Origin: Deltaproteobacteria bacterium
Lineage (GTDB): Bacteria > Bdellovibrionota_B > Oligoflexia > Oligoflexales > RGVZ01
Length of the DNA: 37,312 nucleotides
Direction of reading: 5' to 3'
Assembly: GCA_040381655.1 (NCBI GenBank)
Contig: JBEIGW010000001.1
Location: forward strand, 1-37,312
This document shows positions 4,491 to 27,594 of the stretch, piece by piece (positions within the stretch are counted from its first letter, which is position 1; each line of letters starts with the position of its first letter). The translations under genes and the position numbers were made by a program. The notes under the pieces were generated by a model that was given only the letters and a program-made list of their open reading frames with translations, ran no database searches and was not told where the DNA came from.

Positions 4491-4540
4491 GAGCTTCAAC
4501 CTGAATTTCTTCGGCTAGCCGAATGGTAGGAGATGCGTGA

Positions 4541-5047: not shown

Positions 5048-5049
5048 GG

Positions 5050-5823
5050 ATGGTCAGTTGGTTCAGAAAAAATAGTGCAGTTCAGTGTGTGACGGCGACG
5101 ATTGTTGCTGCGCTCTGTGCTTTTTGTACTTTGTCGTCAGCGATCTTTGCCGCGGGCACTCCGGAGCAGTTTGAGAAGTATGAAATTCGGGTTATTAGGC
5201 CGAAGTATTTCGCTAAGACCTCGAGGCTAGAGACGGGCGCTCAGCTCAGCGTGGTCATGAATCAGTCATTTATCTACACCTATCTTGCTACTGGTTTGCT
5301 GGATTACCACTTTTCGGAGCAATGGGCGGGCGAGGGGGCTTTTGCTCTGGGTTTTAGTATCGATAAGGATGACAAACGCTCATTAAAATCTAACTTTAAA
5401 ATTCAGACTCAGATTCTTCGGACGCAGTACTTCATGGAGGGTGGAGCCCTATACACCCCAGTTTATGGAAAATATCAATTAGATTCCGGTGAACTGATTT
5501 ATCTCGATATGTTCTTTTCCGCTGGCGTTGGGATGACCGGAATTAATTATTTGTATGACCATTGTCCGAAGCCTTCAGAGGTTGGCCAGGGGAATTTTGT
5601 TCCAAGTCCGCCGTCACCCACGACCAAAGCCTACCCTACGTTCTACACGGGTCTTGGGCAGAGAATATTTATGGACAAAAAACTCAGTCTTCGATGGGAT
5701 GTTCGCGCACATATTTTTGGATACAACGTGGCCGATGCTGCCTGTGATCCTGAAACAGCAGCAAAGGCGACTAATTCTCAGACAAATATTACGCTTCAGC
5801 TTGGCGCGGGGTACTTCTTATGA
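5050..5823 (+). CDS. Small outer-membrane beta-barrel protein (myxobacterial-type OMP domain, GltA/B/H-like)
   Basis: 257 aa. Signal peptide ...LSSAIFA/AG. YEIRVIRPKYFAKTSRLE...LDYHFSEQW matches my recollection of the myxo-type OM beta-barrel domain. Alternating hydrophobic strands and C-terminal ...LQLGAGYFL. Starts 3 nt after the upstream stop. Confidence 0.6.
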   Translation: MVSWFRKNSAVQCVTATIVAALCAFCTLSSAIFAAGTPEQFEKYEIRVIRPKYFAKTSRLETGAQLSVVMNQSFIYTYLATGLLDYHFSEQWAGEGAFALGFSIDKDDKRSLKSNFKIQTQILRTQYFMEGGALYTPVYGKYQLDSGELIYLDMFFSAGVGMTGINYLYDHCPKPSEVGQGNFVPSPPSPTTKAYPTFYTGLGQRIFMDKKLSLRWDVRAHIFGYNVADAACDPETAAKATNSQTNITLQLGAGYFL

Positions 5824-7394: not shown

Positions 7395-7445
7395 CAGCAT
7401 ACTTGGTGTGTATACGCATAGCTTTAAAATGAATGAGGAAACGTA

Positions 7446-10400: not shown

Positions 10401-10583
10401 GTGGACTCGATCTCGAAGTTCGCCGTCTATAATGATTGGGCGGGTCGATCAGTATCCGGGTTGGCAAGGATTCAGGGTCAAAAAATCAGTTACGAAGACG
10501 TTGCACTCATTCCTGATTTCGTTGGATCGGAGGTTCCGGCTCCTGTTGCTCAGGCGGTTACCGCAACAAAGGCAGGTGAATAA
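7446..10583 (+). CDS. Large secreted TPR-repeat protein (GltD/AgmU-like)
   Basis: 1045 aa. Signal peptide ...MSQAFA/EY. Many TPR units (AGEAYFQLGDFFFEKKDFKNATNNYKQALRY, WSLFKLGWCSYNLGNYPESLALWKR, etc.). GAGGAA RBS. Confidence 0.6.
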   Translation: MFAKVHLGAALILVLIMSQAFAEYAQADARTKNHREVNLSTVESKKREKGTAEKASGPSMGRGEAFVVATEGKLSSEIKKTIEFYKRTERTLPPKSSARLQMLERLVNLYLESAVYEANAEFRRYDQAYANWVRAGGKGKSPAVDNSASKNTWKQVSSTSAYVMRQFPNTRNSDVLMFNQGLALQYLGQDKQSAQVYSDLIQKYPNSEKAGEAYFQLGDFFFEKKDFKNATNNYKQALRYKTSRGYGWSLFKLGWCSYNLGNYPESLALWKRTVDVAISSRQKGSDQLKEEALKDMIFAWVEMKTVDQAITYYRQHGGEKYIGKFLSQLGDQLVYIGKFNDAIRIYKRYQSMFPNAPDTPDMQKDVISLYYDINRFSEVWKELDAFPRMYGSGSSWAAANKGEQGLVENTQIKIKDTIIYYAKVLHKAGQKDDDVGTYAEAIRGYQLFLKYYPNSKEMPEVKFNMADIMFVQQKYRESGKLYLEVAALGKDKAVQLIPPGNKVVSLHKDAARYMLDSYGLMFEPVYKVMLKRTPDFSKPPRPLPQSATDYVQACSEYGKWYPEDKKAAKECDIYVTAIYYRYADKDKSKKLLFNIAQKYPNEKIGPEAVEWLIPLYTGDTKSLVQIADNLLKQPAYQKGKLGEKLRDLRRGAEIDEIKKIGDVAKRAKAFEDQARKNPKSADADKLFYNAAVDYIKAGMVAQGIAAYGIVVKNYPKSEGYQEALLQLAKLSDKRLEFPTAASYYLAYAAKFPKDKQAESGIGRACVLQVAMSDERAVQTCLNLAKFDAEGAKGLFDRMIREAEYSKNYAKMQKLIAKNYLKFNLSADERIIAFHRIYDAANGKGAAGQQAAREILGAYKSAGGKVGSEASRYVGEIVFNNVNSIMPKYAAIKLVGGNVDKLAASIQKKVAGIPAVDKAYEQVTATKDAFWGVAALYQMGYARELLANELDNPPAIAGASVEDVKKQLAPQVQQARVEAKKFYQFAVDSISKFAVYNDWAGRSVSGLARIQGQKISYEDVALIPDFVGSEVPAPVAQAVTATKAGE

Positions 10584-11731
10584 TGCGAACAACTGGAACG
10601 ATATCGTTTTTGCCCGCTAAATTATTAATCTTGTTGCTTTGGCCCTGGGTGAACGTAGGTTGCTCTGGTGACAAGCGAGAGAAGAAGTCCGAGGAACCTG
10701 TAAGTTCGTCCGCCCCGGCCAGCGGCACTGCTGAAACGCGCGAAGACTCTGGCGCATCGTCTATGACCTCTGAGCGGCGATTTCTGATTAACAGCGTTTC
10801 CAACAATGGACTGACCTCGCGCTCGATCGATAAGGCACGAGCCGCCGATCTGGCTGGGCAATACGGTTCAGGTCGCAGTAAGGACATCAATTCTTTGGCT
10901 GCGGCGATTGCCTCGGGTCGCCTCGCCGGTCAATCTGTAAATGAGGTCATGACCAGTGCTAAGTCCATGGCTGACCTTGAAATGGGGAAGAATATCGAGC
11001 GAGATATCCCTGAAATCGTTCAGTTAGAACTCGGTCTTTCCGGGCTGAATACCGGTCGGCTAGCATTTGCTGAACACTGGTTGGATCCATTAATTAAATC
11101 AAAGAACTCGACAATTCGTGCGTCGGCTATCAATGCCAAAGGCGTGATTGCCATTCGAATGGGTCGTATCCCCGAGGCCGTCGCCATGTTCAAGGAGGCT
11201 CTCTCTGCAAATAATGAATATCGTCCTGCTCTCCTGAACCTTGGGTTTCTAGCTCTTCAGGGCGGTGATGTCACGACCGCAAAGCGTGCACTTGGTGGGA
11301 TGCAAGATGATTGGTACGTGGAATCGGCTCTGGTCTCAGTACTGCGCCTTGAGGGTGAAAGCGACAAGGCAGACACAATCTGTGAAAAGGTTCTTTCGAA
11401 ACGTCCGCGACATAAGCCGACTCTCATAAATTGCGGTATTAACGCTTGGCAGGGTAAAAAAGACTATAAGAAGGCTAAGGATTATCTCAATAAAGCCTTA
11501 TCAGTTGCCGGCGGACTCGCTGTTTGGGACGAAAAAACCGGTCGACTCCTAGGGGCAATCGACACCGAAGAGACGAGGGCCGCTCAGCTCAAGGCCCGCA
11601 AGGAAGACGAGGAGCGCAAAGCCAAGGCCGAGGCGGCTAAGGCTAAGTCAGAGGCTCCAGCAAAAGAGTCCCCAAAGGATTCGGCGGGTGAGCAGTCCAA
11701 ACAAGAAGCGGGGGGCAAGGGGGCCCAATAA
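10583..11731 (+). CDS. TPR-repeat protein, probable lipoprotein, with a Lys/Glu/Ala-rich C-terminal tail
   Basis: 382 aa. TAATG overlap with the upstream stop. Hydrophobic leader ending ...WVNVGC/SGDK (imperfect lipobox). TPR units (EAVAMFKEALSANNEYRPALLNLGFLALQGGD). Tail KARKEDEERKAKAEAAKAKSEAPAKE. Confidence 0.55.
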   Translation: MRTTGTISFLPAKLLILLLWPWVNVGCSGDKREKKSEEPVSSSAPASGTAETREDSGASSMTSERRFLINSVSNNGLTSRSIDKARAADLAGQYGSGRSKDINSLAAAIASGRLAGQSVNEVMTSAKSMADLEMGKNIERDIPEIVQLELGLSGLNTGRLAFAEHWLDPLIKSKNSTIRASAINAKGVIAIRMGRIPEAVAMFKEALSANNEYRPALLNLGFLALQGGDVTTAKRALGGMQDDWYVESALVSVLRLEGESDKADTICEKVLSKRPRHKPTLINCGINAWQGKKDYKKAKDYLNKALSVAGGLAVWDEKTGRLLGAIDTEETRAAQLKARKEDEERKAKAEAAKAKSEAPAKESPKDSAGEQSKQEAGGKGAQ

Positions 11732-11787: not shown

Positions 11788-11872
11788 ATAACGAAAGTTT
11801 AGTTTTATTTGTGCGATTGTGGATTCAGAATCAGACTAAATAATTTTATGTGTTTCCTAGAAAAGGTTGCAA

Positions 11873-14098
11873 ATGGCGTTTGAGTTGCGATTCCAGGTGC
11901 CGGGACAGCTACCCCGCACAATTCCTGCCGACCAATCACGAATGATGATCGGGACGTTGCTCTCGAATCATGTCGTTTTGCGTGCGCCCGGCGTTGATCC
12001 GATTCATGCTCTCATCGAAGAAGTCGAAGCTGGAAAGTGGATCGTTACTGACGTTGGTAGTGAAACTGGCGTCAAGGTTAATGGCGTGCTCATTGATGTT
12101 GAAGCCTCTCTAAAAGTTGGCGATAAAATTTCCGTCGGAAGTGTCGTGCTTGAATTTGCTGAGCAAACGCAAGTCATACCTCCACCTCCTGTTCCAGGTA
12201 TAGGCGCGACGATTCCTGCTCCGGCTAATGTCACGTCAGCAACATCCGCAAAGACGGATGTGAGGGTCAGCGCCGACAAACTCCGCACGCCAGCGGCCAG
12301 TGTTCCCCCACAGACAAACCCCAAAGTCAGCGCCGAAGGTAGAGCAACAGTTCGTCAAGAGGCCCCGTCTGAGGCGCTCGAACGTCGCGTTCAGAAAAAC
12401 GTGCTGTTCCACCCGCGCGATGCAGTTCCCAAAGGTGATACTTTAGAGGTCGTCGCTTATTGGGGCGATACTGTGCTGGATGTTGATCTCTTCCATCCAA
12501 GTTTTAAGAAGTTTGATCATGTGACGATTGGCGTGACCCCGATTGCGCATTTTATTGCTGCAGGTGAAGAGCATTTCGTAAAACACAACCTCGTCAGATT
12601 TAGTTCGAGTGGCGGCTATAAACTTAAACTCCTGAACGGAATGGATACGCGTATCCGACGTGGGGGTAAGGTCGAGAAAATCGACGGTCAAGCCAGCGTG
12701 TCTTTGGACCGTAGGGATATCGCACACATAAAGTTCGGTAGTGTTCGCTATTTTATGCTTTTCGTTAATCCGCCAGAAATTGTCTTGGAGCGTTCTGGTC
12801 CTCGAGATCCCCTTATTGCCTGGTTAACAATTGCGGGCATGCTTTTATATTTTCTGGTAATCCCGTCGCTTTGGATGTCGACTCCGAAGAAAGAGGCGCC
12901 TGAGGAAAACGAAATTTTTGAAATCGTACAGGTGCCTGAGGAGCAAAAACCACCCGAGCCAAAACCACCAGAACCCAAAAAGCCGGAAGTGAAGGTTGAA
13001 GAGAAAAAGGATCCACCCAAGACTCCTAAGCCACCTCCACCGCCGAAACCAAAACCAGTGACGCCGGCTAAGCCAATCGAAAAAGAAAAGGTTGAGCAGC
13101 CGAAACCTGTTGAAAAGCCGGTTGAGAAACCGAAGCCCATGGAGGCTTTGCAACAAAAACCAACACCACCTGCTCCTACTCCGCAAAAGGCGCAAGATGG
13201 AAAACCTGGAGACCCAGCGAAGACGAATTTATCGAGCCTCAGTAAAGCAACGGCTGGTATGGAGTCAACTGGAGCTAAGAAGCCGGACTTTAAATATGCA
13301 GGTGAAAAAAATAACAAACCTCTCGGTGCCGCTGGTGGTCCAAAAGGTTCTGGTAACAATCAGACCGGTGGAGCGATCAAGGGTAAGGAGAGTTTTAGTG
13401 TCCAGGGCGTTGAGGGGCCAAAAAACAATAAGGCGTCCGGTGTCAATTTGGACAAGCTTGGACTTGGAGTTGGAAAGGTCTTGAATAAGACTGGTCCGGG
13501 CGCGATCCAAACGAATTTCCGAAGTGATGTCGGTGGTGCTGGCGGTGGTGCTGGATCAGGCTCCAAAACCTACGGTATGGGCGGCGCAGGCAACGGTAAA
13601 TCTCTTGGTCTTGCAGGTGCAGGCGGTGCTGCCAATAATTTCGGATCTGGATCGGGCGGTGATGGATCGGGTCAGGGTGGAAGTGGTGGTTTTGGCGGCT
13701 CTGGTGGCGGACCAGGTTTTGGAACTGGCGGTGCCGGTAAGGGCGGCGCTGGAGGCCATGGCCGAGCAAATGTGACCATTCCCCCGGGTGATCCGACCTA
13801 CTCCGGCGGTCTGACGGCTCAGGAGATTATGGCGGTGATTCGCGCCCACTTAAACGAAATTCGCCACTGTTATGAGCAGCTGCTTCAGCGCTCTCCAAGT
13901 GCTTCGGGAAAGATAGCAGTCAGCTTTGTCATTGGTTTGTCTGGTGGCGTGACTCGCGTTGGTGTCCAAGAAGCAACACTTAACGACTCTGTGATGAGAG
14001 GTTGTGTGACCGGACGAATACAGCGCTGGACGTTCCCGAAGCCAAGAGGTGGACAGCCAGTTGACGTGAGCTATCCATTCGTCTTCAACCCGCTTTAA
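11873..14098 (+). CDS. FHA-domain / single-TM / Pro-rich / Gly-rich protein with an AgmX/PglI-type TonB_C-like C-terminal domain (GltG/PglI-like)
   Basis: I take the ATG at 11873 (AAAAGG 6 nt upstream) rather than the TTG at 11867. N-terminal FHA-like segment MMIGTLLSNHVVLRAPGVDPIHALIEE...WIVTDVGSETGVKVNG. TM LIAWLTIAGMLLYFLVIPSLW. Pro/Lys/Glu-rich spacer at 12932-13221, Gly-rich tract at 13528-13765. C-terminal LTAQEIMAVIRAHLNEIRHCYEQLL...GCVTGRIQRWTFPKPRGGQPVDVSYPFVFNP. Confidence 0.75.
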   Translation: MAFELRFQVPGQLPRTIPADQSRMMIGTLLSNHVVLRAPGVDPIHALIEEVEAGKWIVTDVGSETGVKVNGVLIDVEASLKVGDKISVGSVVLEFAEQTQVIPPPPVPGIGATIPAPANVTSATSAKTDVRVSADKLRTPAASVPPQTNPKVSAEGRATVRQEAPSEALERRVQKNVLFHPRDAVPKGDTLEVVAYWGDTVLDVDLFHPSFKKFDHVTIGVTPIAHFIAAGEEHFVKHNLVRFSSSGGYKLKLLNGMDTRIRRGGKVEKIDGQASVSLDRRDIAHIKFGSVRYFMLFVNPPEIVLERSGPRDPLIAWLTIAGMLLYFLVIPSLWMSTPKKEAPEENEIFEIVQVPEEQKPPEPKPPEPKKPEVKVEEKKDPPKTPKPPPPPKPKPVTPAKPIEKEKVEQPKPVEKPVEKPKPMEALQQKPTPPAPTPQKAQDGKPGDPAKTNLSSLSKATAGMESTGAKKPDFKYAGEKNNKPLGAAGGPKGSGNNQTGGAIKGKESFSVQGVEGPKNNKASGVNLDKLGLGVGKVLNKTGPGAIQTNFRSDVGGAGGGAGSGSKTYGMGGAGNGKSLGLAGAGGAANNFGSGSGGDGSGQGGSGGFGGSGGGPGFGTGGAGKGGAGGHGRANVTIPPGDPTYSGGLTAQEIMAVIRAHLNEIRHCYEQLLQRSPSASGKIAVSFVIGLSGGVTRVGVQEATLNDSVMRGCVTGRIQRWTFPKPRGGQPVDVSYPFVFNPL

Positions 14099-17245: not shown

Positions 17246-17294
17246 ATAAAAAAACACGCTTCGGTCTCGTCTTTCGATCGGACCAAAGCGTGTT
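17246..17294 (-). terminator. Rho-independent terminator of the KR-ACP-DH-KS-KSlike-reductase operon
   Basis: On the minus strand, AACACGCTTTGGTCC...GACCGAAGCGTGTT forms a stem of about 13 bp with one mismatch, followed by TTTTTTTTATT. It lies 19 nt after the reductase stop. Confidence 0.8.
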
Positions 17295-17312
17295 GGGGCT
17301 ATTATCTACAAA

Positions 17313-18476
17313 TTAGCTTTGTAGATGCGGGTTGCGATACTGGAACTCGGGCATACGGAGCTTGCGGCCCCATTTACTCTCAGTACAGTAGGCAAGAATC
17401 GCTTTACCGTAGGCTTTCCAGTGTGGTGCCGGGATTGCTCCGAGCGACCTGAGGAATGCCGTTGACTTGCGGTTATCGAATACAACGTTCGTACCGGAAA
17501 GGTAGTCATTGTAAACGGCCGCCAGTTCACACGTTCTCCAGAAATCCTCCGACATTAATCGGCGTAGCCAAGTTCCGCGAAGAAGCTTGAATACCCATAC
17601 CGGGATTAAAGGGCGACGTTGAATATTTGTCTGCTCGAATGCGTCGTTAAGAAGCTCATCGATACGAACGCCTTTTTCGGCGCCAGCGGTCAGATAGAAC
17701 GTCTTGCCGAGGCTCTTGCGAGTCATCATAATCTTGTACATTGAGTTGGCGACGAAGTCGACCGGGACAATGTCCAAGCGTGCCTTGCGGCTGCAAGGAA
17801 CGAACGGAATGATGTTTTTGGAGAGAAGTTGTAGCGGCCAGTAGAGCACTTTGAAGTGTGGAGTAAAGCCGTTACGTGAGTCACCAACCACGATCGATGG
17901 ACGATAAATCGTTGTTGGTAAAATTTGCTTGTAGTCACGAACAAGAAGCTCTGCTTCGAACTTACTTTGCTCATATGCGTTAGCGAAGCTCTGTGAACGG
18001 TCTAAGTCGTCCTCAGTTACGACGCCGGACTTGGTGCCAGCGACGAAAGCCGTAGAGACATAGTCGAATCTTTCGAGTTTGCCTTTTTCGCGGCAAACAA
18101 CTGCCAAGTCGAGTAACTTACGGGTTCCCTCGACGTTGATATGTCTGGATTCCTCGATCGGAGCAGCAAAGTCAGTGCTTGCGCCGATATGAAGGATGTG
18201 AGTACAGGAGTTTTCCAGGCGCTCGCGCGTGGTGGAGTCAAGTCCCATCGCGTCTAACGTCAAGTCGCCAGCAACGACCTCCATTTTCGACATCGCGAAA
18301 TCGCGGTCATTGGGTGCAAAAACTTTTTCTACGAGGCTGTTTAAGCGCTCTTTAGCAGGCTGCTTCGGTGAATCCCGAAGTAGTAATAAAATCTTTTTGA
18401 CTTTGTTGTCGCGAACTAGACTTGGTAGCATTGCTGCTCCCAGGAATCCGCTTCCACCTGTAACTAGAATTTCCAT
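17313..18476 (-). CDS. NAD(P)-dependent thioester / fatty-acyl reductase (NAD_binding_4, extended SDR)
   Basis: 387 aa from the ATG at 18476 (GGGAGG 6 nt upstream; the ORF is open to 18524). MEILVTGGSGFLG Rossmann motif, YVSTAFVAG and NAYEQSKFEAE (YxxxK). This is the pattern of fatty acyl-CoA/ACP reductases and NRPS/PKS terminal R domains. Confidence 0.75.
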   Translation of the reverse strand: MEILVTGGSGFLGAAMLPSLVRDNKVKKILLLLRDSPKQPAKERLNSLVEKVFAPNDRDFAMSKMEVVAGDLTLDAMGLDSTTRERLENSCTHILHIGASTDFAAPIEESRHINVEGTRKLLDLAVVCREKGKLERFDYVSTAFVAGTKSGVVTEDDLDRSQSFANAYEQSKFEAELLVRDYKQILPTTIYRPSIVVGDSRNGFTPHFKVLYWPLQLLSKNIIPFVPCSRKARLDIVPVDFVANSMYKIMMTRKSLGKTFYLTAGAEKGVRIDELLNDAFEQTNIQRRPLIPVWVFKLLRGTWLRRLMSEDFWRTCELAAVYNDYLSGTNVVFDNRKSTAFLRSLGAIPAPHWKAYGKAILAYCTESKWGRKLRMPEFQYRNPHLQS

Positions 18477-18546
18477 TGTTGCCTCCCGTTTTGCCCCGTA
18501 AAAACAATTATATTCACTGCACAATAATGCATTAAAACAGTTAAAC

Positions 18547-19728
18547 TTATTCCATCTCTACGATCATGCAGGAGTACTCTCCCCATGTGGATGACCGCAA
18601 TACGACTGCGGTTCGCTTGCCTGAATTAAACTCACCGCCAGTTTTTGTCTTGGATGTGCTAGGAACTGCTTTTTTCGCATAGCAGCTGGACAAGAAAGCG
18701 ATTTCAGCCAAACCGCCAGCTTCCATCATGTTGCCCCATCTAGATGCAGTAGACGCAATAGCAGGCTTGTTGGTTCCACTCCAGATCGTATCGATTGCAG
18801 TTTGCTCTGCGTTGTCGACTGATGCGAGACCAGACCCAGACGTCATCACAATGCCGATATCACTTGCTTGGATCTTCGCATTGGCCAAGGTTTGCTTGAT
18901 CAGGTCTGTCAAAACTGGACTCTGCGAATTGGTCTTATAAGGACCCATAGCATCGGTTGCAGCTGCGCAAGCTACCACTTTACAGATGGGCTTGGCACCG
19001 CGTTTTGTTGCGTTGGCACGCGTTTCGAGGGTGGCAAAAGCCGCGCCCTCGGCAATCGGTGTGCCATCGTAAAGACCGCGCTGTTTCATGGAGGAGATAA
19101 ACTCCTTGTTAGAGTGAGCGGTGTATCCGCCCACGACCGCGCAGTCAAGTCGGCCAAGGCGAAGGGCGCGAGTGGCACCCATGACTGCCATGTGAGAGCT
19201 CGTTTCCATAGTCGTATAGTTCGAGTTCGGACCACGAGCATCTAGCGTCTTTGCACCGTAGCACAAAACGTTATTAGGTAGACTTGTCAATAGAGTCGTA
19301 GGACTCGCTGACCGGAAGTTTTCACCGAAGGCCTTTTCGTTGAGAACCCCGTAAGCATCTACAGACGCCGTAACGGCTTCACTGTAGTTTTCAAGGTCAA
19401 CACACGAAGAGGGGGGAGCACCAACATAGAGTCCTGTACGATCAGGATTGATCGTTTGTGCTGATATCCCTGAGTTTTTAAGACAATCTTCCATAGCGAC
19501 TAGGCCCAAAACGTCGCGATGGGATACTGCTTTGACGACTTTGCGGTCAGTAAGATGCGGAGCTGGGTTAAAACCAACGACTTTGTAATCTTCGGAAGTC
19601 TTTTTTGCATTATCCTGATCAAATGACTGGACGTTGGCCTCAGCTCCAAGCCCTGTGGCTGTAAGCATGCCGACACCAGTGACCACGATGTCATCCGATT
19701 TTTGATTTGTATTCGTAGTAGTACTCAT
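18547..19728 (-). CDS. Beta-ketoacyl synthase-like protein lacking the Cys-His-His triad (chain-length-factor-like partner)
   Basis: 393 aa. Aligns by eye along its length with the adjacent KS. HTACASSG corresponds to TTMETSSH (Cys to Glu), NAHGTSTNLND to MTSGSGLASVD (His to Ser) and TTGHLISAAG to RWGNMMEAGG (His to Asn). Starts 3 nt after the KS stop. Confidence 0.8.
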   Translation of the reverse strand: MSTTTNTNQKSDDIVVTGVGMLTATGLGAEANVQSFDQDNAKKTSEDYKVVGFNPAPHLTDRKVVKAVSHRDVLGLVAMEDCLKNSGISAQTINPDRTGLYVGAPPSSCVDLENYSEAVTASVDAYGVLNEKAFGENFRSASPTTLLTSLPNNVLCYGAKTLDARGPNSNYTTMETSSHMAVMGATRALRLGRLDCAVVGGYTAHSNKEFISSMKQRGLYDGTPIAEGAAFATLETRANATKRGAKPICKVVACAAATDAMGPYKTNSQSPVLTDLIKQTLANAKIQASDIGIVMTSGSGLASVDNAEQTAIDTIWSGTNKPAIASTASRWGNMMEAGGLAEIAFLSSCYAKKAVPSTSKTKTGGEFNSGKRTAVVLRSSTWGEYSCMIVEME

Positions 19729-19731
19729 GAC

Positions 19732-20985
19732 TTAAACTCTCCTCGCAATAAGTGAGGTGTTAGATCCACCAAATCCGACCGAGTTAGACAAAGCATAGGA
19801 ACTTGTCATCGGTGTCGGTGTCGTCGGTGTTACGTTAATTTCACAGGCAGGATCCTGAGATTTAAGGTTAGTCGACGGCGGATATACTTGATGTTTTAGC
19901 GCCATCATGGCGACAGCAAACTCAATCGCACCAGCAGCGGAGATCAAATGCCCTGTGGTACTTTTTGTACTGGACACCTTGGTTGGACAGCTTGTTCTAT
20001 TGAAAACCTTGCTGATGGCAAGAGATTCAACCTTGTCATTCAGATTAGTTGAAGTCCCGTGTGCGTTAATGTAGCCAACTTCATGTGCCTTGATACCGGC
20101 GTCATCGAGAGCCATTTGCATAGACTCAATTACGCCGCGACCTTCAGGGTGAAGGTCAGTGATGCGGTATGCTGACTCCGTAACGCCGTATCCGCAGATT
20201 TCTCCAAGAATCGTTGCACCACGAGCTTTTGCATGCTCATATTCTTCGAAAACTAGCATGCAGGCGCCTTCGCCGAGTACGAAACCATCACGGTCCACGT
20301 CAAAAGGACGAGACGCTTGGGATGGATCGCTCACGCGAGTAGACAGTGCTCCAAGTAGACAGAATCCGGCCATTTGGAATGGGTTAATCATACAGTCAGC
20401 GCCACCTGTCATGACAACGTCATACTCGCCGGTGGCGATCATCTCATAAGCCTCACCAAGAGCTTGTCCTGAGGAGGCGCAAGCAGTGTGAATCGTTGAG
20501 GAAGCACCCTTCGCGCCTAACAGGTTAGCAACCATTGCTGTTAGTGTGCTGGGAAAGTTTTTTCTATGGTTTAAGGTAAATTCGTCACCCTCAAATTTCT
20601 CAGTTAAGTAAGAGCCGTGCTGCCAAGGTAGGCTTGTGCTTCCAACGCCAACACCCAAGCACACGGCAGTTTTTAGTGGGTTCAGTTTACCGTTCTTGAG
20701 AATATTGGCCTGCGTAGCGGCTTCAATTGCCGCGTTCCAACCAAATCGGCCTGCGCGGTTTAAAAGCTGGGAATTAGGATTGCCTTCGAGGCCCATTGTG
20801 TTCATTTTGAAATCTTTAACTTGATACGCAAAATTTGTTGGAAATTTTTCCGCGTCGAAGATCTCGACCGGCCCAACGTTCTTTTTGCCCTCTATGATAC
20901 CGTTCCATGTATCATTCATAGTGTTACCAGCTGGGGTTACAGCTCCCATTCCAGTGATCACTACTCTTTTTTTGTTTGTCTTCAT
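19732..20985 (-). CDS. Beta-ketoacyl-ACP synthase, KAS I/II (FabF/FabB-like), catalytically intact
   Basis: 417 aa. KKRVVITGMGAVTPAG, active-site HTACASSGQALGEA, YINAHGTSTNLND, STKSTTGHLISAAG and GFGGSNTSLI. Confidence 0.9.
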   Translation of the reverse strand: MKTNKKRVVITGMGAVTPAGNTMNDTWNGIIEGKKNVGPVEIFDAEKFPTNFAYQVKDFKMNTMGLEGNPNSQLLNRAGRFGWNAAIEAATQANILKNGKLNPLKTAVCLGVGVGSTSLPWQHGSYLTEKFEGDEFTLNHRKNFPSTLTAMVANLLGAKGASSTIHTACASSGQALGEAYEMIATGEYDVVMTGGADCMINPFQMAGFCLLGALSTRVSDPSQASRPFDVDRDGFVLGEGACMLVFEEYEHAKARGATILGEICGYGVTESAYRITDLHPEGRGVIESMQMALDDAGIKAHEVGYINAHGTSTNLNDKVESLAISKVFNRTSCPTKVSSTKSTTGHLISAAGAIEFAVAMMALKHQVYPPSTNLKSQDPACEINVTPTTPTPMTSSYALSNSVGFGGSNTSLIARRV

Positions 20986-21027
20986 AATCTGCCCCTTTTG
21001 TTTTCAACCTGTGCCGTCGCGCTTTTC

Positions 21028-21879
21028 CTATTGGCTCTGACGGTAGCGGTAACGCCCTCTCAAGATTCTTTTGTCATTCACCAATATTTCAGAGACTGTT
21101 TCAAACTCACTACCATTAGTTTCGGTGACTTTACTTTGAATGATCGCAGTGTCACCTGGTCTGATGAAGGACTTGATCTTCAAATCCTGAACAGCGATTG
21201 GATGAATGATGGTTTGCTTTGACGCATCCTTTGTCATCATGCGCCTGGTGGCTTCAGCAATCATCTCGTTGATTACGACAATCGGCGTTACAGGAAACCT
21301 TGGGAAGTGATCTGGATAGAACGGCTCGTTAGAGTTCATAACTCTAGCGGTTTTGATCGACTTTCCTGGATCCACTTCGAGAACTTGGTCCACTAGACCA
21401 GCAAAGTTAAACGCATCACTTGCCGGATTTGCCGGTAAACCACCGGCGCTTAAGGTTTCGAAGCGCTTACGGGTAACTTCAGGGTCTTCAAGCTCTGCCA
21501 GCGGCATGAAATATCCGCCGCATTCTTTAATTTCGACCACGGTCTTCCCGCCAACTTTGGCGGTACCGGAGAATATGAAGGAGTCTTCACTACGATTCGA
21601 AATCCAAGCTTCCAGGTCTACTGTGCCAGGAGCTGGGATCGAACCACTTAGGTCAATTTGGCTAGCAAACAAGAATACAGGACGGCCAGTGAACTTATTG
21701 TCACGTAAAGCCATCCACGAAACGAGCTGTCCGACTGCTTCGGAAACCACACTCGTCCTGATTTCAGTTTTATTTTCAGAGGACGTACGACGCCAAGGCT
21801 CACCGGCGGAAAAATCCACCTGGCCTTTGATTTTTTCTCCAGTGATGTCCTGGATTCGACTGACAAACAAGAATCTCAT
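21028..21879 (-). CDS. Double hot-dog 3-hydroxyacyl-ACP dehydratase (FabA/FabZ-like motif in the C-terminal half)
   Basis: 283 aa, about twice the length of FabZ. The C-terminal half carries EPFYPDHFPRFPVTPIVVINEMIAEA (FabZ/FabA-type HFPxxPxxP motif). The N-terminal half has no catalytic His motif that I can see. Confidence 0.65.
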   Translation of the reverse strand: MRFLFVSRIQDITGEKIKGQVDFSAGEPWRRTSSENKTEIRTSVVSEAVGQLVSWMALRDNKFTGRPVFLFASQIDLSGSIPAPGTVDLEAWISNRSEDSFIFSGTAKVGGKTVVEIKECGGYFMPLAELEDPEVTRKRFETLSAGGLPANPASDAFNFAGLVDQVLEVDPGKSIKTARVMNSNEPFYPDHFPRFPVTPIVVINEMIAEATRRMMTKDASKQTIIHPIAVQDLKIKSFIRPGDTAIIQSKVTETNGSEFETVSEILVNDKRILRGRYRYRQSQ

Positions 21880-21903
21880 AACCTTAATCCTTTTCCACTG
21901 CCG

Positions 21904-21930
21904 CCAACTACACCAACTACGCCAACTAAG
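21904..21930 (-). repeat. 3 x 9-bp tandem direct repeat in the ACP-dehydratase intercistronic region
   Basis: Plus strand CCAACTACA CCAACTACG CCAACTAAG. The mRNA sense reads CUUAGUUGG CGUAGUUGG UGUAGUUGG. Ends 25 nt upstream of the dehydratase ATG. Confidence 0.7.
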
Positions 21931-21953
21931 AGAGCCTGCTTCAGAATGGGCGG

Positions 21954-21973
21954 GCTAGGCCCGAAGGCCTAGC
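21954..21973 (-). promoter_or_regulatory. Intercistronic stem-loop with a UUCG tetraloop directly downstream of the ACP gene
   Basis: The mRNA sense reads GCUAGGCC-UUCG-GGCCUAGC (8-bp GC-rich stem). No U-tract follows, so it is not a classical terminator. Confidence 0.55.
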
Positions 21974-21995
21974 TCGCCAGAGAGGAATGGGTCGA

Positions 21996-22433
21996 TTAAA
22001 CCGTTGCGGTGGCAGCTTTCGCTTCACCAGCGTTGGTCGTGCTTGTCGGAGAATCTCCGAGTTGCTCAGCAACCATACGCTCGAAGGTCGCTACCGAGAA
22101 CAAGGTTGGGATATCCTTGACTCGAAGACCCGGCTTGATTTTATCAGCCGAAACTTCGGGCATTATTGTACGAAGACGCGCAAGTCCTTTTTCTTGCAGT
22201 ACGCCTTGTACTTCGAACTCGCCATCAGCGAGGTCGCCACGAGCTTTTTGCTCGATTTCACCCTTTGGAAGTTTAATTCCGAAGGTTTTTTCCAGACGGA
22301 AAACGATATCGAGGAAGTCGATACTTTCCGCGCCGAGGTCGGCCATCAGGTTGGCGTCACGAGTGACTTGCTCTTTTTCACAGTAAAGAGCCTCAACGAT
22401 GATGTCCTGGATTTTGTCGAATGTTGATTGCAT
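21996..22433 (-). CDS. Acyl carrier protein with a C-terminal extension of about 65 aa
   Basis: 145 aa from the ATG at 22433 (AAAGGAAG RBS; the ORF is open to 22508). MQSTFDKIQDIIVEAL...ANLMADLGAESIDFLDIVFRLEKTFGI has a PP-binding helix II motif with Ser in GAESID. The sequence continues well beyond the usual length of about 80 aa. Confidence 0.8.
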   Translation of the reverse strand: MQSTFDKIQDIIVEALYCEKEQVTRDANLMADLGAESIDFLDIVFRLEKTFGIKLPKGEIEQKARGDLADGEFEVQGVLQEKGLARLRTIMPEVSADKIKPGLRVKDIPTLFSVATFERMVAEQLGDSPTSTTNAGEAKAATATV

Positions 22434-22524
22434 GTTGTACTTCCTTTCTTGCCTTTTACCTAATTTAAGTAATTGAACCCTTGCCCCTATCGTTTCAACC
22501 GCGAGCATCCCCGCCAGTTGTAAC

Positions 22525-23274
22525 TTACAACTTAATACCGCCGTCGATGTGTACGACCTCGCCCGTCATGTATGACGTCAGGTCCGAAGCAAGAAATACC
22601 GCCATATTTGCGATATCTTCTGGCTTTCCAAAGCGCTTTAGCAGCACGCTCTCAAGGATCTTGTCGCCAGCAGCGTCACGAACATCCTTGCTCATCTCTG
22701 TCTCAATAACTCCTGGCGCTATACAGTTGACTCGAATGTTTCTTGGAGCCAACTCCACGGCCAACGCCTTCGTCATCGTCTCAATGCCGCCTTTCGAGGC
22801 TGCATAGTTGACCTGACCGCGACCAGGACGCGACGCAGCAACTGACGACACGTTAATGATGTTTCCGGATCTCTTGCGCATCATTTGACGGCTTACTGCT
22901 CGGGTTACGTAAAATGCGCCGCCAAGGTTCGTATTAATAACGTCTTGCCAGCCAGCATCTTCCATGGCCATCATGAGGTCGTCTTTAACGATGCCTGCAT
23001 TATTGATTAATACGTCGATCGGACCATGCTCGGCTTCAAGAGCCGCAACGCCGTCATCAACTTCTTTGGAGTTGCGGACGTCCATTTTGCAGGCGTGAGC
23101 TTTAAGTCCCTGAGATTTCAAGCCTCCGACAAAATCGTCGGCAGCCGATTTATTACTGACATAGGTGGCAATAACCGTAGCTCCAGCTTTCGCCAAAGCC
23201 TCCGTCATGGCGCGACCAATACCTCGCACTCCGCCCGTGATTAGGACGTTTTTACCTTGTAGAGATACTTGCAT
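22525..23274 (-). CDS. 3-oxoacyl-ACP reductase-type classical SDR (FabG-like ketoreductase)
   Basis: 249 aa from the ATG at 23274 (GGAGG 7 nt upstream). VLITGGVRGIGRA, NNAGI, SSVAA...YAASKGG (S-Y-K triad) and IRVNCIAPGVIETEM. Confidence 0.88.
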   Translation of the reverse strand: MQVSLQGKNVLITGGVRGIGRAMTEALAKAGATVIATYVSNKSAADDFVGGLKSQGLKAHACKMDVRNSKEVDDGVAALEAEHGPIDVLINNAGIVKDDLMMAMEDAGWQDVINTNLGGAFYVTRAVSRQMMRKRSGNIINVSSVAASRPGRGQVNYAASKGGIETMTKALAVELAPRNIRVNCIAPGVIETEMSKDVRDAAGDKILESVLLKRFGKPEDIANMAVFLASDLTSYMTGEVVHIDGGIKL

Positions 23275-23295
23275 TGGACCGCCTCCTGTAACCAC

Positions 23296-23669
23296 ACCGC
23301 TTCTAACAACTCAACGTCAGCTATTTCCCACTTTGAGGGTTTTCTCCCTCGATGTTTGAGTGTTTACGGGATAAGCAGTGCGGTTGCAAGCATAAAATGA
23401 TTTTAGGAGTGATTACATATGATTATATTTTATTAGAAATAGGTGAGACATTCTAAAAATGAGAATTTGATGAGAAGGAATTTGGTATCAAAAGTATACC
23501 AACCCCTTGAAATTCCTGGTGCGCTCTATAGGTCCAATAGAATTTTTTTATATTTATTTTTTAAGGAAATTAGGCAGTTAGGACAAAAAATAATGGTTTT
23601 TTATGAAACATTAAAGAGCGCTAATTGCCGAATTTATTTGCGTATGTCCCTGAATTTTATGGAACTATA
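23296..23669 (-). promoter_or_regulatory. Anomalously AT-rich leader/promoter region upstream of the KR-led operon
   Basis: My hand count for 23391-23670 gives about 29% G+C, against roughly 50% in flanking genes. Contains the inverted repeat TTGGTAT (23482-23488) / ATACCAA (23496-23502) and long A/T runs. Its only ORF (23443-23670, +) looks spurious. Confidence 0.5.
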
Positions 23670-23710
23670 AACAAAAAGAGGCGCCTGATCGGTCGGACGC
23701 CTCTTTTTTT
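23670..23710 (-). terminator. Bidirectional-looking rho-independent terminator downstream of fabI
   Basis: AGAGGCG (23677-23683) pairs with CGCCTCT (23698-23704). It is flanked by AAAAA on one side and TTTTTTT on the other. Lies 27 nt after the fabI stop. Confidence 0.75.
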
Positions 23711-23736
23711 GAAGCAATTAAACGACAAAGCTCAGC

Positions 23737-24546
23737 TTAATTTTTAGGCAATACGGCCCGACCAGGGCTTCCCATGACATGGTACCCGCAATCCACGTGA
23801 AGTGTTTCCCCCGTGGTTGCAGATGCAAGATCGCTAAGCAGGAATCCAGTTGAACGTCCTACTTCTTCAGCGGTAATGTTTCGCGCCATCGGTGCAATCG
23901 ATTCATACATCATCAACATGTCTGTCGCACCCACAGCTGATGAAGCTAGAGTTTTCACAGGGCCAGCGCTTACGGCATTGACTCGAATACCTCGTGGTCC
24001 CAAATCCCAAGCAAGATATTTTGTCGCAGATTCTAGCGCAGCTTTACACAGTCCCATGAGATTGTATCCACCAACGACACGCTCACCACCGTAGTAGGTC
24101 ATGGTCGCCATGGCACCACCCCGCTCCATGAGCGGCGCGGCGGCCCTGGCACATGCAATGAAGCTATAGCAGCTAATGTCCATGGCATTTAAAAATCCTG
24201 CGCGACTGGCATCAATCGTTGCACACTTTATGTCTTCCATGGGCGCATATGCGATGGAATGAACTAAAAAGTCGATCACACCAAAATGTTCTCTAACGTC
24301 TTTAAAGAAGCGAGTGATATCTTCGTCATTACTGACGTCACAAGGTTTTACAAATGTGATCCCGAGTGGCTCCGCCACCCTCATGACACGGCGAAGCATT
24401 TTTGGCGGACCGTCAGATTTGTCGGGTAGGTGGCTTAATCCAATTTCCGCGCCTTCTTTTTTAAGGAAATCGGCAACGCCAGCGGCCAGGGAGTGTTCGT
24501 TAGCAACCCCCATTATGATTCCTTTTTTACCGGTGAATAGTCCCAT
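23737..24546 (-). CDS. fabI: Enoyl-ACP reductase (NADH) FabI
   Basis: 269 aa. GKKGIIMGVANEHSLAAGVA and YYGGERVVGGYNLMGLCKAALES (Y-x6-K), then IRVNAVSAGPVKTLA. Confidence 0.9.
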   Translation of the reverse strand: MGLFTGKKGIIMGVANEHSLAAGVADFLKKEGAEIGLSHLPDKSDGPPKMLRRVMRVAEPLGITFVKPCDVSNDEDITRFFKDVREHFGVIDFLVHSIAYAPMEDIKCATIDASRAGFLNAMDISCYSFIACARAAAPLMERGGAMATMTYYGGERVVGGYNLMGLCKAALESATKYLAWDLGPRGIRVNAVSAGPVKTLASSAVGATDMLMMYESIAPMARNITAEEVGRSTGFLLSDLASATTGETLHVDCGYHVMGSPGRAVLPKN

Positions 24547-24699: not shown

Positions 24700-27594
24700 T
24701 TAGAACAGAGCATCAAAGCCAAATGTCCAATAGGCTTGCCATGTGCGGCCTAAAACTTGCCCAGTGCCAAACCCCATGTTGAAATTAACACCTTTGTTAT
24801 CCAAAAATAGATCTAGACTGTAGCCGTGCGCAGCAGTCAGATCAGTGAGTTTGGGGAGATCAGGCCCCCTCCATGCTGTTCCATAATTGAAAAATCCGCT
24901 GCCCACCATTTTGTCAACGTACACAAGGCCACCCAGGAACTTATCAAAATTTTCAACAATGGGGTGGGTCATTAAAATTCGGGCCCTCGCCTGACTTTCA
25001 CCAAAAGCTGGACTGAATAGACCGTGATCTTCCGTCAGTGCGAAGCTGTTCTGATTTAGTCCTGCTCCAGTTCCTGGAATTAGTGTTTTTAAGGGTTGAT
25101 ACATTTCCTGAAGCTCCCGCCGTCGCGGACCTCTCGTTCTACTGTGATCGAGTGCCGCCTCAACTTTTCCCTTTCCAACTTTGCTACCACCGGTGACCGA
25201 TCCCCCGACAACGTCGTATTGAAAGACTTTGTTCATAGCAGCAGGTGCAAATCGTGTTCGAAATGACAAAGCAGAATAAAAGCGTGAGTACCCTGACATG
25301 GTTGCGCTAATGCCCGCATAGGGTTCATTCAGATGCCCGCTACGACGTGTGGGGCCGATGTAGGGTTTCAAGTGGGAGCTTTTAATGCCCCAATCGTAAT
25401 CCAAAGAAAGGTTCTTCCATTGTTGTCGGTAGAACCCGTCCACTCTTCCGCCTTGTTCCTCAACGAAACCAGATAGGATTTCTTTTGTCACCTTGTCCCG
25501 ATAACGGCCGTTATAAACTTGTGCTCGAAATGCCGTTATGGACCAGGTGGGATCGAAGCGATTCGTCACGAGTGTAACATCATGATAAGGAAATCGGCTT
25601 GCGGTTCCGACTAATACCGTTGCCCGCAATGTTTCATTTTGCATGTGATCCATGAGTGGCACGCTGATAAGTCCTACTTGCGGCCCAAGAGCGTCATCTG
25701 CACCGATCCACGGGAAGGCCAGCACGGGTCGCCCCCGCCACGCAGCGGGTTTGATCTCCGGCAGACTCGCCTCTGTCGGCTCAGCGCCAGTTGATGCTTC
25801 AATCTGCGGAGCATCTTTTTTAGATTCAGCGGAGTCTAGTTGGGGCGTCGTTTCCTGATTTTTGGACCAAATATTTGATCGTTGCATCGCCTCACTCAGC
25901 GAAATCGGTGATGGAGATTGCATCGCCGCAAGCAACGGCGATGATCTCTCTGATAACCCGCGACATGGTTTTAGTGGAAATCGGTTTGAATCCGGCAGCC
26001 GAGCGGGGAAGCCATCAGACGAGAATAAAATGACATGCGGTAAATTGGTGGATGATCCAATGATTCTGACGGGGAAGTCTGAGAGTTCGACGACCCCCAT
26101 GCATTGGAATTGCTCGTTTAGCTTGATTAAGTGGCGCCAAGAACGACTTGCGCCCAGCATCCAAATTGAGTCGCCAGCGCGCGCTAAACTTATGGGGCGT
26201 CCACCCACCGGCGACTTCAGGGTTCTCAGTTGGGATGTGTGTAGATCTACTTCTAGAATATCTTGGCTATCGCCGTGTAACCGTTCAGTGCTGCGCGAAA
26301 GCCACAGGGTTTTTGTAGTTTTTGAGTTAAGATCCTCGTCAGTACCGAGCACTTTTAAAGTCTCTGGCATGTTTGACGACAGAGCACAATTAACGGCACT
26401 TTTTTTGAAGTTTTTTTGTGGTGCTGAACATAGGCTGACCTTTTCAACGTATGTTTCTAGCCACCAGACGCGGTCATCACTTAGCCAAGGTCCGTCAATC
26501 CAGGTACTGTCTCGTTCTAGTGAGCGCCGGATTTTACGATCTGGCGCGAGCACGACTTTGATGCGCTGTTGGTTTGCTTGGGGATAATATGTTGCAATCC
26601 AGGCTTTAGTTTTCCCGTTATCGGCTAGTTGATAGCTTGCAGATTCGGCTGGTGGTCTGACTCTTTGTAGTTTGCCGTCTCTAAATCTCCATGAATAGGC
26701 GCTTTCGGCTTTTGATCCCGCTTCCGATAACAATATGGGTGACGACAACTGTCCCTTCCAATGGGCGGTCGCGTCAATCTTGTATTGTTCATATAGTTCA
26801 AAGCCCGATTTTCCACTAATGGCTTGGAGGGCGCTATCCATCGGAAGAAAGCCGTTTAGCGGAGTCAGAGCCCATGGCCAATACCATGGCATCGATTTCG
26901 CCCTAAAATGTTCTAGTAACTCCGGCAGACGATCGGCTCCATGGGTTTTTAAAATCCATGATACAAACGCGCCACTCGTGGCGTATCCCCGGTAATTGAA
27001 CGGTCCAGTCGTATATAGGCTGTGAATCCTATCCCAGGAGGGCCACTGACCAGACAGAGCTTGATATCGCTCAACTCCGGCCTGTTCATCAGATCCGATG
27101 GCGACGCTTATGGCCTCAGCGAGACCCTCAAGAAACCATGCTTCCATCCAGGGAAGATGAAATATTGCTCCGGCTGGTCCGAAGATATTGTCGAAATGTC
27201 GATACATGGTGGAGTGAACGTATTCATGCCACGCAAGGTCTCGGCCGCCCTGGCCCATGGTCTGTAGCTCGATTGAATCGGTTAAGAAGTTGGCAAATGA
27301 AGCGTTTTGACTGGCGGCCGATATATTGACAATCAAGGGTGAGGATCTTTGAACGTTAAACCACTTTTCGACAGATGGTCTGGCAGCCTCGAGTGCCTTC
27401 AGAGCCAGTTTAGCATCTGCGGGTGCACGCTCATCAAAGTAAACTATGAAATTTGGCGACGTCATTTCCATGAATGTCAGCTCGCCTTGGTTGTAGCCAA
27501 AACCTATGGGCAAAGCGTGGGCACTTTCGACACAGCAAGTGACCTGAACCAACAAAATCAGAATTTTTTGTAAAGTCTCTTTGATCTGACGCAC
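24700..27594 (-). CDS. Secreted gluzincin-like (HExxH...E, peptidase-MA-like) protein fused to a C-terminal outer-membrane beta-barrel
   Basis: 964 aa, GTG start. Signal peptide ...CCVESAHA/LP. AWHEYVHS (HExxH at 27214-27228) is followed about 28 residues later by WFLEGLAEA. The central region is beta-rich. The last 330 aa or so have amphipathic strands and end ...QAYWTFGFDALF, a terminal Phe as in OMP beta-signals. Confidence 0.6.
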   Translation of the reverse strand: MRQIKETLQKILILLVQVTCCVESAHALPIGFGYNQGELTFMEMTSPNFIVYFDERAPADAKLALKALEAARPSVEKWFNVQRSSPLIVNISAASQNASFANFLTDSIELQTMGQGGRDLAWHEYVHSTMYRHFDNIFGPAGAIFHLPWMEAWFLEGLAEAISVAIGSDEQAGVERYQALSGQWPSWDRIHSLYTTGPFNYRGYATSGAFVSWILKTHGADRLPELLEHFRAKSMPWYWPWALTPLNGFLPMDSALQAISGKSGFELYEQYKIDATAHWKGQLSSPILLSEAGSKAESAYSWRFRDGKLQRVRPPAESASYQLADNGKTKAWIATYYPQANQQRIKVVLAPDRKIRRSLERDSTWIDGPWLSDDRVWWLETYVEKVSLCSAPQKNFKKSAVNCALSSNMPETLKVLGTDEDLNSKTTKTLWLSRSTERLHGDSQDILEVDLHTSQLRTLKSPVGGRPISLARAGDSIWMLGASRSWRHLIKLNEQFQCMGVVELSDFPVRIIGSSTNLPHVILFSSDGFPARLPDSNRFPLKPCRGLSERSSPLLAAMQSPSPISLSEAMQRSNIWSKNQETTPQLDSAESKKDAPQIEASTGAEPTEASLPEIKPAAWRGRPVLAFPWIGADDALGPQVGLISVPLMDHMQNETLRATVLVGTASRFPYHDVTLVTNRFDPTWSITAFRAQVYNGRYRDKVTKEILSGFVEEQGGRVDGFYRQQWKNLSLDYDWGIKSSHLKPYIGPTRRSGHLNEPYAGISATMSGYSRFYSALSFRTRFAPAAMNKVFQYDVVGGSVTGGSKVGKGKVEAALDHSRTRGPRRRELQEMYQPLKTLIPGTGAGLNQNSFALTEDHGLFSPAFGESQARARILMTHPIVENFDKFLGGLVYVDKMVGSGFFNYGTAWRGPDLPKLTDLTAAHGYSLDLFLDNKGVNFNMGFGTGQVLGRTWQAYWTFGFDALF

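Follow-up and report, generated by a model that had tools for sequence, protein, structure and literature searches.

A probable six-gene type II fatty-chain elongation operon with a predicted reductive off-loading enzyme in an Oligoflexales bacterium

How does an acyl chain leave its carrier protein when the operon that would build it encodes no acyltransferase? This question is raised by six co-directional genes on the minus strand (17313-23274; the open reading frames (ORFs) reach 23295) of a 37,312-nucleotide stretch of DNA, hereafter the window, which spans positions 1 to 37,312 of contig JBEIGW010000001.1 (assembly GCA_040381655.1) from a Deltaproteobacteria bacterium assigned by GTDB to the Oligoflexales. 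In order of transcription, they encode a ketoreductase (KR), a long acyl carrier protein (ACP), a dehydratase (DH), a ketosynthase (KS), a KS paralogue without a catalytic triad (KS') and a stand-alone thioester reductase (TR) (Table 1). An original prediction had proposed this content and order from the letters of the DNA, and ORFs, Pfam and NCBIfam bear it out, with Pfam recovering both the 145-aa ACP and the terminal NAD_binding_4 reductase. We think it probable, if well short of certain, that this cassette is a dedicated AcpXL-like fatty-chain elongation module with its own ACP, from which the chain is off-loaded reductively by TR.

The last gene bears most directly on the question of release. 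TR matches NAD_binding_4 (PF07993) at 8e-60 (202.6 bits against a cut-off of 20.1) and the NCBIfam model TIGR01746 at 1e-46 (158.5 bits, under the subfamily cut-off of 213), and its TGGSGFLG motif, Thr142 and Y168xxxK172 (YEQSK) are invariant in 23 homologs; Pfam returned nothing for the isolated C-terminal part. By sequence, its closest solved structures are the terminal reductase (R) domain of MxaA (3e-28), a polyketide synthase (PKS) thioreductase, the R domain of a Mycobacterium tuberculosis nonribosomal peptide synthetase (NRPS) and carboxylic acid reductases (CARs). An AlphaFold model (pLDDT 90, pTM 0.90) gave full-length Foldseek matches (TM 0.70-0.78) headed by the MxaA R domain, the coelimycin PKS TR, CAR R domains and a plant fatty acyl reductase (FAR). 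R domains and FARs convert thioesters on a carrier protein or on CoA into aldehydes or alcohols by reduction. With PKS and NRPS R domains (MxaA, the coelimycin CpkC TR, CAR R) and plant FAR/DPW, TR shares the NAD_binding_4 fold, the TGxxGxxG motif and the Thr/Tyr/Lys residues; unlike R domains, it stands alone and would serve a type II system rather than forming part of a megasynthase, and unlike FARs it has no FAR_C ('Sterile') domain. By family, fold and position, TR would thus release the chain reductively, to a level that sequence does not specify, since two- and four-electron reduction are not distinguishable in this way.

TR could instead be an extended short-chain dehydrogenase/reductase that acts on another substrate, such as a sugar nucleotide or a keto group, the chain being released by an unlinked thioesterase or acyltransferase. 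Weaker Pfam matches to Epimerase, 3Beta_HSD and GDP_Man_Dehyd, and sugar epimerases lower in the Foldseek list, are what this idea would lead one to expect; the Pfam matches in question reach no more than 55 bits as against 202 for NAD_binding_4, however, the best matches in sequence and fold are carrier-protein-dependent R domains aligned over the full length including the C-terminal subdomain, and TR holds the off-loading position in a strictly conserved gene order. We consider this alternative very unlikely.

A second line of evidence comes from related cassettes, in which the place of TR is held by a different enzyme. With one genome taken per species, a pattern scan and a subsequent tblastn yielded 38 loci (L001-L038). 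Recurrence of the order KR-ACP-DH-KS-KS'-TR, which the original prediction had referred to a gene-neighbourhood check, was found in at least 23 genome loci (L001-L023, hereafter TR-type); a sister type was found in L024-L038 and on contigs L041, L042 and L047, with hosts among Legionellaceae, Verrucomicrobiota, Acidobacteriota ('Acidoferrum'), Binataceae and unclassified proteobacterial metagenome-assembled genomes (MAGs). The sister cassettes are laid out as (FabL)-FabG-long ACP-(double hot-dog DH)-KS-KS'-(AcpS)-Lip_A_acyltrans (for example, L042:6552-12113 and L035:5877-12552); their ACPs have ~137-150 aa, and DH is present in most and missing in the Binataceae type. In all of them a gene of the LpxL family (Lip_A_acyltrans) follows KS', where the window has TR. 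No sister cassette contains a TR, tblastn with the sister acyltransferase gave zero matches in any TR-type locus, and Lip_A_acyltrans (PF03279) was absent among the window ORFs scanned. The gene order is equal in the two types, and identities between window and sister proteins are 45-51% for KR (~33% in the Legionellaceae-type L041 and L042), 44-51% for ACP, 26-31% for DH, 40-55% for KS and 26-33% for KS'.

The correspondence extends to an additional gene. In the TR-type loci L004 (11748-12119), L008 (11761-12132) and L009 (11143-11541), an AcpS gene (~123-132 aa, PF01648) lies between KS' and TR, a position in which the window cassette has none, and in the Binataceae type AcpS is fused to the acyltransferase (L025:11320-12522). 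AcpS therefore occupies the same slot in both cassette types, which supports the positional equivalence of the two off-loading enzymes. In a joint neighbour-joining tree of KS and KS', built from distances, the paralogues split first and the TR-type and acyltransferase-type proteins are sisters within each, so that the KS/KS' duplication is older than the split of the cassette types. Sister KS' proteins keep both His residues and have Cys (Verrucomicrobiota, Acidobacteriota), Ala (Legionellaceae) or Ser/Gly (Binataceae) at the first position; in TR-type KS' proteins the entire triad is gone in all. Many sister cassettes start with a FabL enoyl-ACP reductase (338.7 bits against a cut-off of 328), and one acyltransferase-type locus continues with an ArnT-like PMT_2 gene.

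Taken together, these sequence comparisons indicate that the two cassette types differ essentially in their off-loading enzyme. Because TR occupies the slot that an LpxL-family acyltransferase fills in the sister cassettes found in other phyla, the Oligoflexales lineage appears to have swapped the exit of the chain from its carrier protein, from an acyltransferase to a reductase. The novelty lies in this swap of off-loading chemistry; no element is mechanistically unprecedented. Outside Rhizobiales, the sister cassette could plausibly account for long-chain lipid A fatty acids. We found no publication on the sister cassettes, and the literature searched, whose coverage was not exhaustive, yielded no description of a cassette that ends in a reductase, nor of Oligoflexia lipids to account for one.

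What kind of chain might the cassette carry? The best lead comes from the ACP, in which Pfam recognizes a PP-binding domain (6e-10), with the Ser of LGAESIDFLD as the phosphopantetheine attachment site. Some 45 aa are inserted after helix II, an insertion that is kept across both TR-type and acyltransferase-type cassettes, and the tail of the protein (127-145) is disordered; Pfam returned nothing for its isolated C-terminal half. By sequence, its closest solved structures are the 'specialized acyl carrier protein' entries 2kw2/2lpk/3lmo/7tzd (E 3.5e-12), identified in PMC9234698 as R. palustris AcpXL, the carrier for very-long-chain fatty acids. Two of them, 2kw2 and 3lmo, are also the top Foldseek matches of an AlphaFold model (pLDDT 83.5), over ~125 aligned columns as compared to only ~60 for housekeeping ACPs. 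Among the best 120 homologs, all have 116-163 aa, and nearly all 141-163. Judged by its sequence and its modelled fold, the ACP is AcpXL-like, not AcpXL proper.

The closest characterised system is the rhizobial/Agrobacterium acpXL-lpxXL cluster, in which acpXL-fabZXL-fabF2XL-fabF1XL-adhA2XL-lpxXL provide the 27-OH-C28:0 fatty acid of lipid A; rhizobial AcpXL systems make C26-C34 chains (PMC11901934). The window operon, which would work like the elongation part of this cluster, resembles it in being organised as an operon and in having a dedicated, AcpXL-like ACP, its own dehydratase, two adjacent genes of the 3-ketoacyl-ACP synthase (KAS) II type and no fabD or fabH of its own, and its order ACP-DH-KS-KS' parallels acpXL-fabZXL-fabF2XL-fabF1XL, the FabF and FabZ counterparts being compared by description. 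It differs in having a FabG, an ACP of 145 aa with an insertion as compared to 93 aa, a fused double hot-dog DH in place of a single FabZ and one dead KS, in lacking a Zn-dependent alcohol dehydrogenase, and above all in lacking the LpxXL acyltransferase, the defining feature of that cluster, which TR replaces. The likeness to the acpXL cluster, which the original prediction had noted among others, has proved the most informative: AcpXL is the top match of the ACP in both sequence and fold, and the sister cassettes end in a lipid A acyltransferase.

The other four proteins would serve chain elongation. KR matches adh_short_C2/KR in Pfam at 1e-66, and its orthologs have 249 aa. In DH, Pfam finds FabA (5e-11) at residues 162-273, in a FabZ-like C-terminal half that carries DHFP. 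The N-terminal half is a pseudo-FabZ domain; in alignments the catalytic His is missing from it, while a Glu in SEAxGQL on its central helix is invariant. Its hot-dog fold is visible only by profile search against the Protein Data Bank, where a profile of 18 orthologs matches FabZ structures across the whole domain (E 1.8e-11), in agreement with the double hot-dog enzyme that had been predicted; Pfam returned nothing for the isolated N-terminal half, and per-member scans of these halves were weak. The DH family numbers 34 representatives at E <=1e-30 and 249 at <=1e-10 among 1.84e9. One representative, P0259, has 726 aa with the double hot-dog DH at residues 1-287, and may be a fusion with a downstream enzyme.

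Alignments likewise agree with the predicted contrast between the two ketosynthases. KS (ketoacyl-synt N 6e-42, C 3e-33 in Pfam) has an intact triad, C169/H309/H346. In KS' (N 1e-14, C 6e-10), all three residues are replaced: Cys by Glu, the first His by Ser (MAFFT) or Gly (BLASTP) and the second His by Asn. The Cys position is Glu in the window and Glu, Ser, Asp or Val in relatives. Because KS' starts 3 nt past the KS stop, and by analogy with pairs of KS and chain-length factor, KS' is presumed to be a non-catalytic, chain-length-factor-like heterodimer partner of KS. Its family is small, with 82 relatives at >=30% identity among 5.8e9 clusters; among plasmid proteins, its only matches were NodE/NodF and unrelated KS genes (24-28% identity), with no acpXL-type reference. 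P0112 was dropped as a cassette member, being an unrelated locus with a short ACP and a KS.

Could these genes simply be the housekeeping, and only, type II fatty acid synthase (FAS) of the organism, with TR an unrelated neighbour? The adjacency of fabI, which is the only further fab gene in the 37-kb window, might suggest so. Each of the four proteins concerned, however, scores under the NCBI equivalog cut-off for its housekeeping counterpart: KR reaches 287.5 bits with TIGR01830, slightly below the cut-off of 297.75, KS 423 bits with the fabF model TIGR03150 (cut-off 493.75), DH 64-70 bits with FabZ models (cut-offs 113-155) and ACP 51 with AcpP (cut-off 70.45). Moreover, the ACP is a 145-aa AcpXL-like protein, one of the two KS proteins has lost its catalytic residues, TR stays strictly within the operon across TR-type loci, and some MAGs have two cassettes. 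Legionellaceae, which share the core, have an ordinary FAS II. The 37-kb window contains no fabD, fabH, plsX or short (78-aa) acpP, and with the sub-cut-off scores this led us to reject housekeeping membership, a reading that we regard as the most improbable of those weighed here. The original prediction had set the operon apart from the housekeeping fab cluster, and it is supported on this point indirectly, by the sub-equivalog scores and by relatives in lineages with ordinary FAS II.

Enoyl reduction is the step for which the operon itself has no enzyme, as had been predicted; the wider setting qualifies that statement, in that fabI lies a few kb away in distant members and FabL is found in many sister cassettes. 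The fabI product matches adh_short_C2 at 2e-76 (Pfam) and FabI models at 291 bits. The gene adjoins the cassette upstream in L001-L011 and downstream in L012, L021 and the metagenome contig P0049, and an all-versus-all comparison of flanking ORFs found it to be the sole gene conserved alongside the cassette. The neighbouring fabI thus probably supplies the missing step, and full reduction of the chain is likely because fabI is found near distant members in two arrangements and FabL in many sister cassettes.

This evidence also bears on the possibility of a highly reducing type II PKS of the aryl-polyene/ishigamide type, which would iterate without enoyl reduction and from which TR would free a conjugated polyene aldehyde, a pigment or signal. 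The window operon shares with such systems (ApeO/ApeC, ApeI/ApeP; Iga11/Iga12) a KS with a non-catalytic partner, a KR and an ApeI-related hot-dog DH (PF22818, ApeI-like, in DH homologs); it has no internal enoyl reductase, several TR-type loci have no fabI nearby, and there are weak NCBIfam matches to AmcB, AmcE and AmcF of the cispentacin type II PKS-like system. The ACP, however, is AcpXL-like rather than ApeE/F-like, many sister cassettes hold a bona fide FabL and hand the chain to a lipid A acyltransferase, fabI adjoins the cassette in two arrangements, and the Cys position of KS' is Glu or variable as compared to the Gln of priming chain-length factors. The other aryl-polyene genes (starter ligase, thioesterase, LPLAT/glycosyltransferase and MMPL), those for lipid anchoring and export included, are absent from the window ORFs and the conserved flanks, and no NCBIfam Ape model was matched. 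We therefore consider a polyene product unlikely, and the resemblance to aryl-polyene and type II PKS loci noted in the original prediction turns out to be remote. An aryl-polyene cluster as such was rejected: counterparts of the ApeH-type ligase, ApeK, ApeD/ApeJ and ApeM/L/N are absent, only the six genes are conserved across TR-type loci, and their neighbours in the window are of housekeeping kind. So was an aromatic type II PKS, given the Glu, not Gln, at the Cys position of KS' and no cyclase domains in the window.

Precedents for the reductive release of a chain are found in terminal R domains and, for a discrete fatty acyl-ACP, in the biosynthesis of tambjamine BE-18591, in which such an ACP and an acyl-ACP reductase (TabQ/TabE) are reported to give a C12 aldehyde (bioRxiv 10.1101/2025.08.11.669332). 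In both systems a fatty chain bound to a dedicated ACP would be freed as an aldehyde by a discrete reductase. TabE reportedly lacks the usual acyl-ACP reductase signatures, whereas TR has canonical motifs, and the tab cluster, which includes a thioesterase and a transaminase, has no KS/KS'/DH/KR set like that of the window.

How strictly is TR tied to the elongation genes? TR is kept in the operon in all TR-type loci, preceded by a gap of 0-70 nt or by the AcpS gene. Within L001-L023, the exceptions to the six-gene order are L014 and L018, which have no DH, and a few loci on contigs that end within the cassette. These loci are labelled Oligoflexales, 'Pseudomonadota' or 'Proteobacteria bacterium', a few apparently misassigned, and all are MAGs, mostly from lakes. 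The TR-type cassette was also found, via KS' or TR homologs, on metagenome contigs L039, L043-L046 and P0049, in quite different neighbourhoods. Identity to the window ranges across TR-type loci from 96% down to 34% for KS' and down to 45% for TR. Two TR-type cassettes occur in each of the MAGs JAPLFY01 (L014 and L017), CAIWTN01 (L015 and L018) and JAYWBY01 (L013 and L023), and the second copies L014 and L018 are those with no dehydratase gene between ACP and KS. In the window and its close relatives, the cassette lies in a conserved core-genome stretch (FHA protein, surE, M23 peptidase, apaG, fabI, dus) and not in an island. The closest public relative, L001 (CAYOEM010000003.1), has 94-99% protein identity to the window; this locus and L010 (CAZUYQ010000069.1) were deposited as 'uncultured Polynucleobacter sp.' MAGs, a label that is probably a misassignment, as gene content and the other relatives point to Oligoflexales.

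These observations are consistent with the following pathway. Because the window operon encodes no acyltransferase or phosphopantetheinyl transferase, malonyl units would be loaded on the long ACP by the cell's FabD, and the ACP would be activated by the cell's AcpS. KS, paired with the dead KS', would condense the malonyl units; the FabG-like KR would reduce each 3-oxo group and the double hot-dog DH would dehydrate, both having their catalytic residues in place, and the FabI encoded next door would reduce the enoyl intermediate. TR would then cleave the finished acyl-S-ACP with NAD(P)H, and a fatty aldehyde or, after a four-electron transfer, an alcohol would result. In either case the chain is probably saturated and, by analogy with AcpXL systems, long or very long.

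Several points weigh against this pathway. Firstly, the AcpXL-type model PRK06508 scores 58.9 bits on the ACP, under its cut-off of 83 (NCBIfam), and the ~45-aa insertion is absent from AcpXL; the analogy with AcpXL is, moreover, the sole argument for chain length. Secondly, the fetched flanks of the TR-type loci L013, L015, L019, L020, L022, L043 and L045 contain no fabI, so full chain reduction is not assured. Thirdly, the comparison of flanking ORFs found no aminotransferase, wax synthase or glycosyltransferase conserved beside the cassette. Lastly, all relatives are MAGs or metagenome contigs.

Where might the product go? In a special case of the pathway above, it would end on the envelope, for instance as a very-long chain joined through an ether or acetal bond to lipid A or to a different glycolipid of the outer membrane. 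There it would replace the very-long-chain fatty acid of lipid A, and transferases encoded elsewhere would attach it. The sister relationship to lipid A acyltransferase-type cassettes and the core-genome setting are in keeping with this, as is the L043 cassette, which lies beside a LolCDE-like ABC transporter, a LolA-like protein and a glycosyltransferase; L043, however, is a single case, and no transferase is conserved with the cassette, and we judge this destination improbable. The genes in question (L043:672-4878, before the cassette) encode a LolA-like TP_0789 protein, a MacB/FtsX-type ABC transporter and a GT1 glycosyltransferase, and could form a lipid export or modification set.

If the reductive off-loading by TR is correct, off-loading enzymes would be exchangeable on a conserved type II elongation module, with the chain redirected from lipid A to a free aldehyde or alcohol, and the six genes would be a compact candidate route to bacterial long-chain fatty aldehydes and alcohols directly from acyl-ACP, of relevance to lake lipid biomarkers and to engineered fatty alcohol production. 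A distinctive lipid would be suggested in an uncultured, probably predatory lineage, and the sister cassette would become a testable gene source of unusual long lipid A chains outside Rhizobiales. A bolder proposal, which we advance tentatively and with more doubt than belief, is that uncultured Oligoflexales-type freshwater bacteria assemble very-long-chain aldehydes or alcohols, perhaps (omega-1)-functionalised, on an AcpXL-like ACP and turn them into a new class of lipid for the envelope or for storage. An ancient cassette for very-long-chain acylation of lipid A would have been re-purposed through the exchange of acyltransferase for TR, and in Legionellaceae, Verrucomicrobiota and Acidobacteriota the sister cassette would underlie the long-chain fatty acids of lipid A.

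The layout of the operon is given in Table 1. Gene starts were chosen by ortholog lengths and, for KR, by an AGGAGG eight bases before the ATG; the KR gene is present as predicted, and its predicted end at 23295, the GTG of the longest ORF, gives way to 23274 as the best-supported start. From KR to TR the intergenic gaps are 91, 116, 42, 3 and 70 nt, which reproduces the predicted range of 3 to 116 nt.

Table 1. Genes and flanking elements of the operon in the window.
Feature	Position	Strand	Description
KR	22525-23274	-	249 aa, FabG-type 3-oxoacyl-ACP reductase; start at the ATG after AGGAGG
ACP	21996-22433	-	145 aa, long AcpXL-like acyl carrier protein
DH	21028-21879	-	283 aa, double hot-dog dehydratase
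KS	19732-20985	-	417 aa, KAS II-type ketosynthase
KS'	18547-19728	-	393 aa, KS paralogue without catalytic triad
TR	17313-18476	-	387 aa, stand-alone thioester reductase
Intrinsic terminator	17246-17294	-	operon end; dG -26.3 kcal/mol, z -6.68, then U7
AT-rich leader and promoter region	23275-23736	-	~440 nt between fabI and KR
fabI, enoyl-ACP reductase	23737-24546	-	separate transcription unit, own terminator ~23671-23710

Both ends of the transcription unit stand as originally described. Folding recovers the strong terminator after TR, for which an equally stable fold arose in 0/200 shuffles, and the 440-bp AT-rich leader and the separate terminator of fabI are visible in the sequence. A consensus scan for promoters and terminators gave only background-level counts and did not call the terminator after TR, because the loop limit of the scanner is 8 nt. 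The ~200 nt of leader nearest KR (within 23296-23520) are common to the window and L001 and to L002 and L003. This conserved part contains the palindrome TTGGTATACTTTTGATACCAA and a small hairpin, GAGGG-AGAAAA-CCCTC, with a compensatory stem change in relatives (GGGGG/CCCCC). Rfam gave zero matches across the window, the conserved leader included. This stretch may be an operator or a leader element.

Two distant TR-type loci have, upstream of the cassette and divergent from it, a sigma-54 activator and a Ser/Thr kinase, which are fused to each other in L045 (2984-5008) and encoded by adjacent genes on the P0049 contig (2519-6250). These neighbours hint at regulated expression of the cassette. 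Because sigma-54 activators flank these distant members, the window leader was inspected by eye for a promoter of this type, and the GG-N10-GC arrangement was not seen there.

Two further proteins encoded in the window were noted. Next to fabI, an ORF of 964 aa (24700-27594, minus strand) has a signal-like N-terminus and no Pfam match, and shares 54-88% identity with its counterparts in L001-L009. A protein of 743 aa (11867-14098, plus strand) has a TonB-like C-terminus, a low-complexity middle that is Pro/Lys-rich and Gly-rich, and an FHA domain, which was seen in its L039 ortholog; its gene follows an ExbB/ExbD-type set and genes for large TPR proteins (3182-11731).

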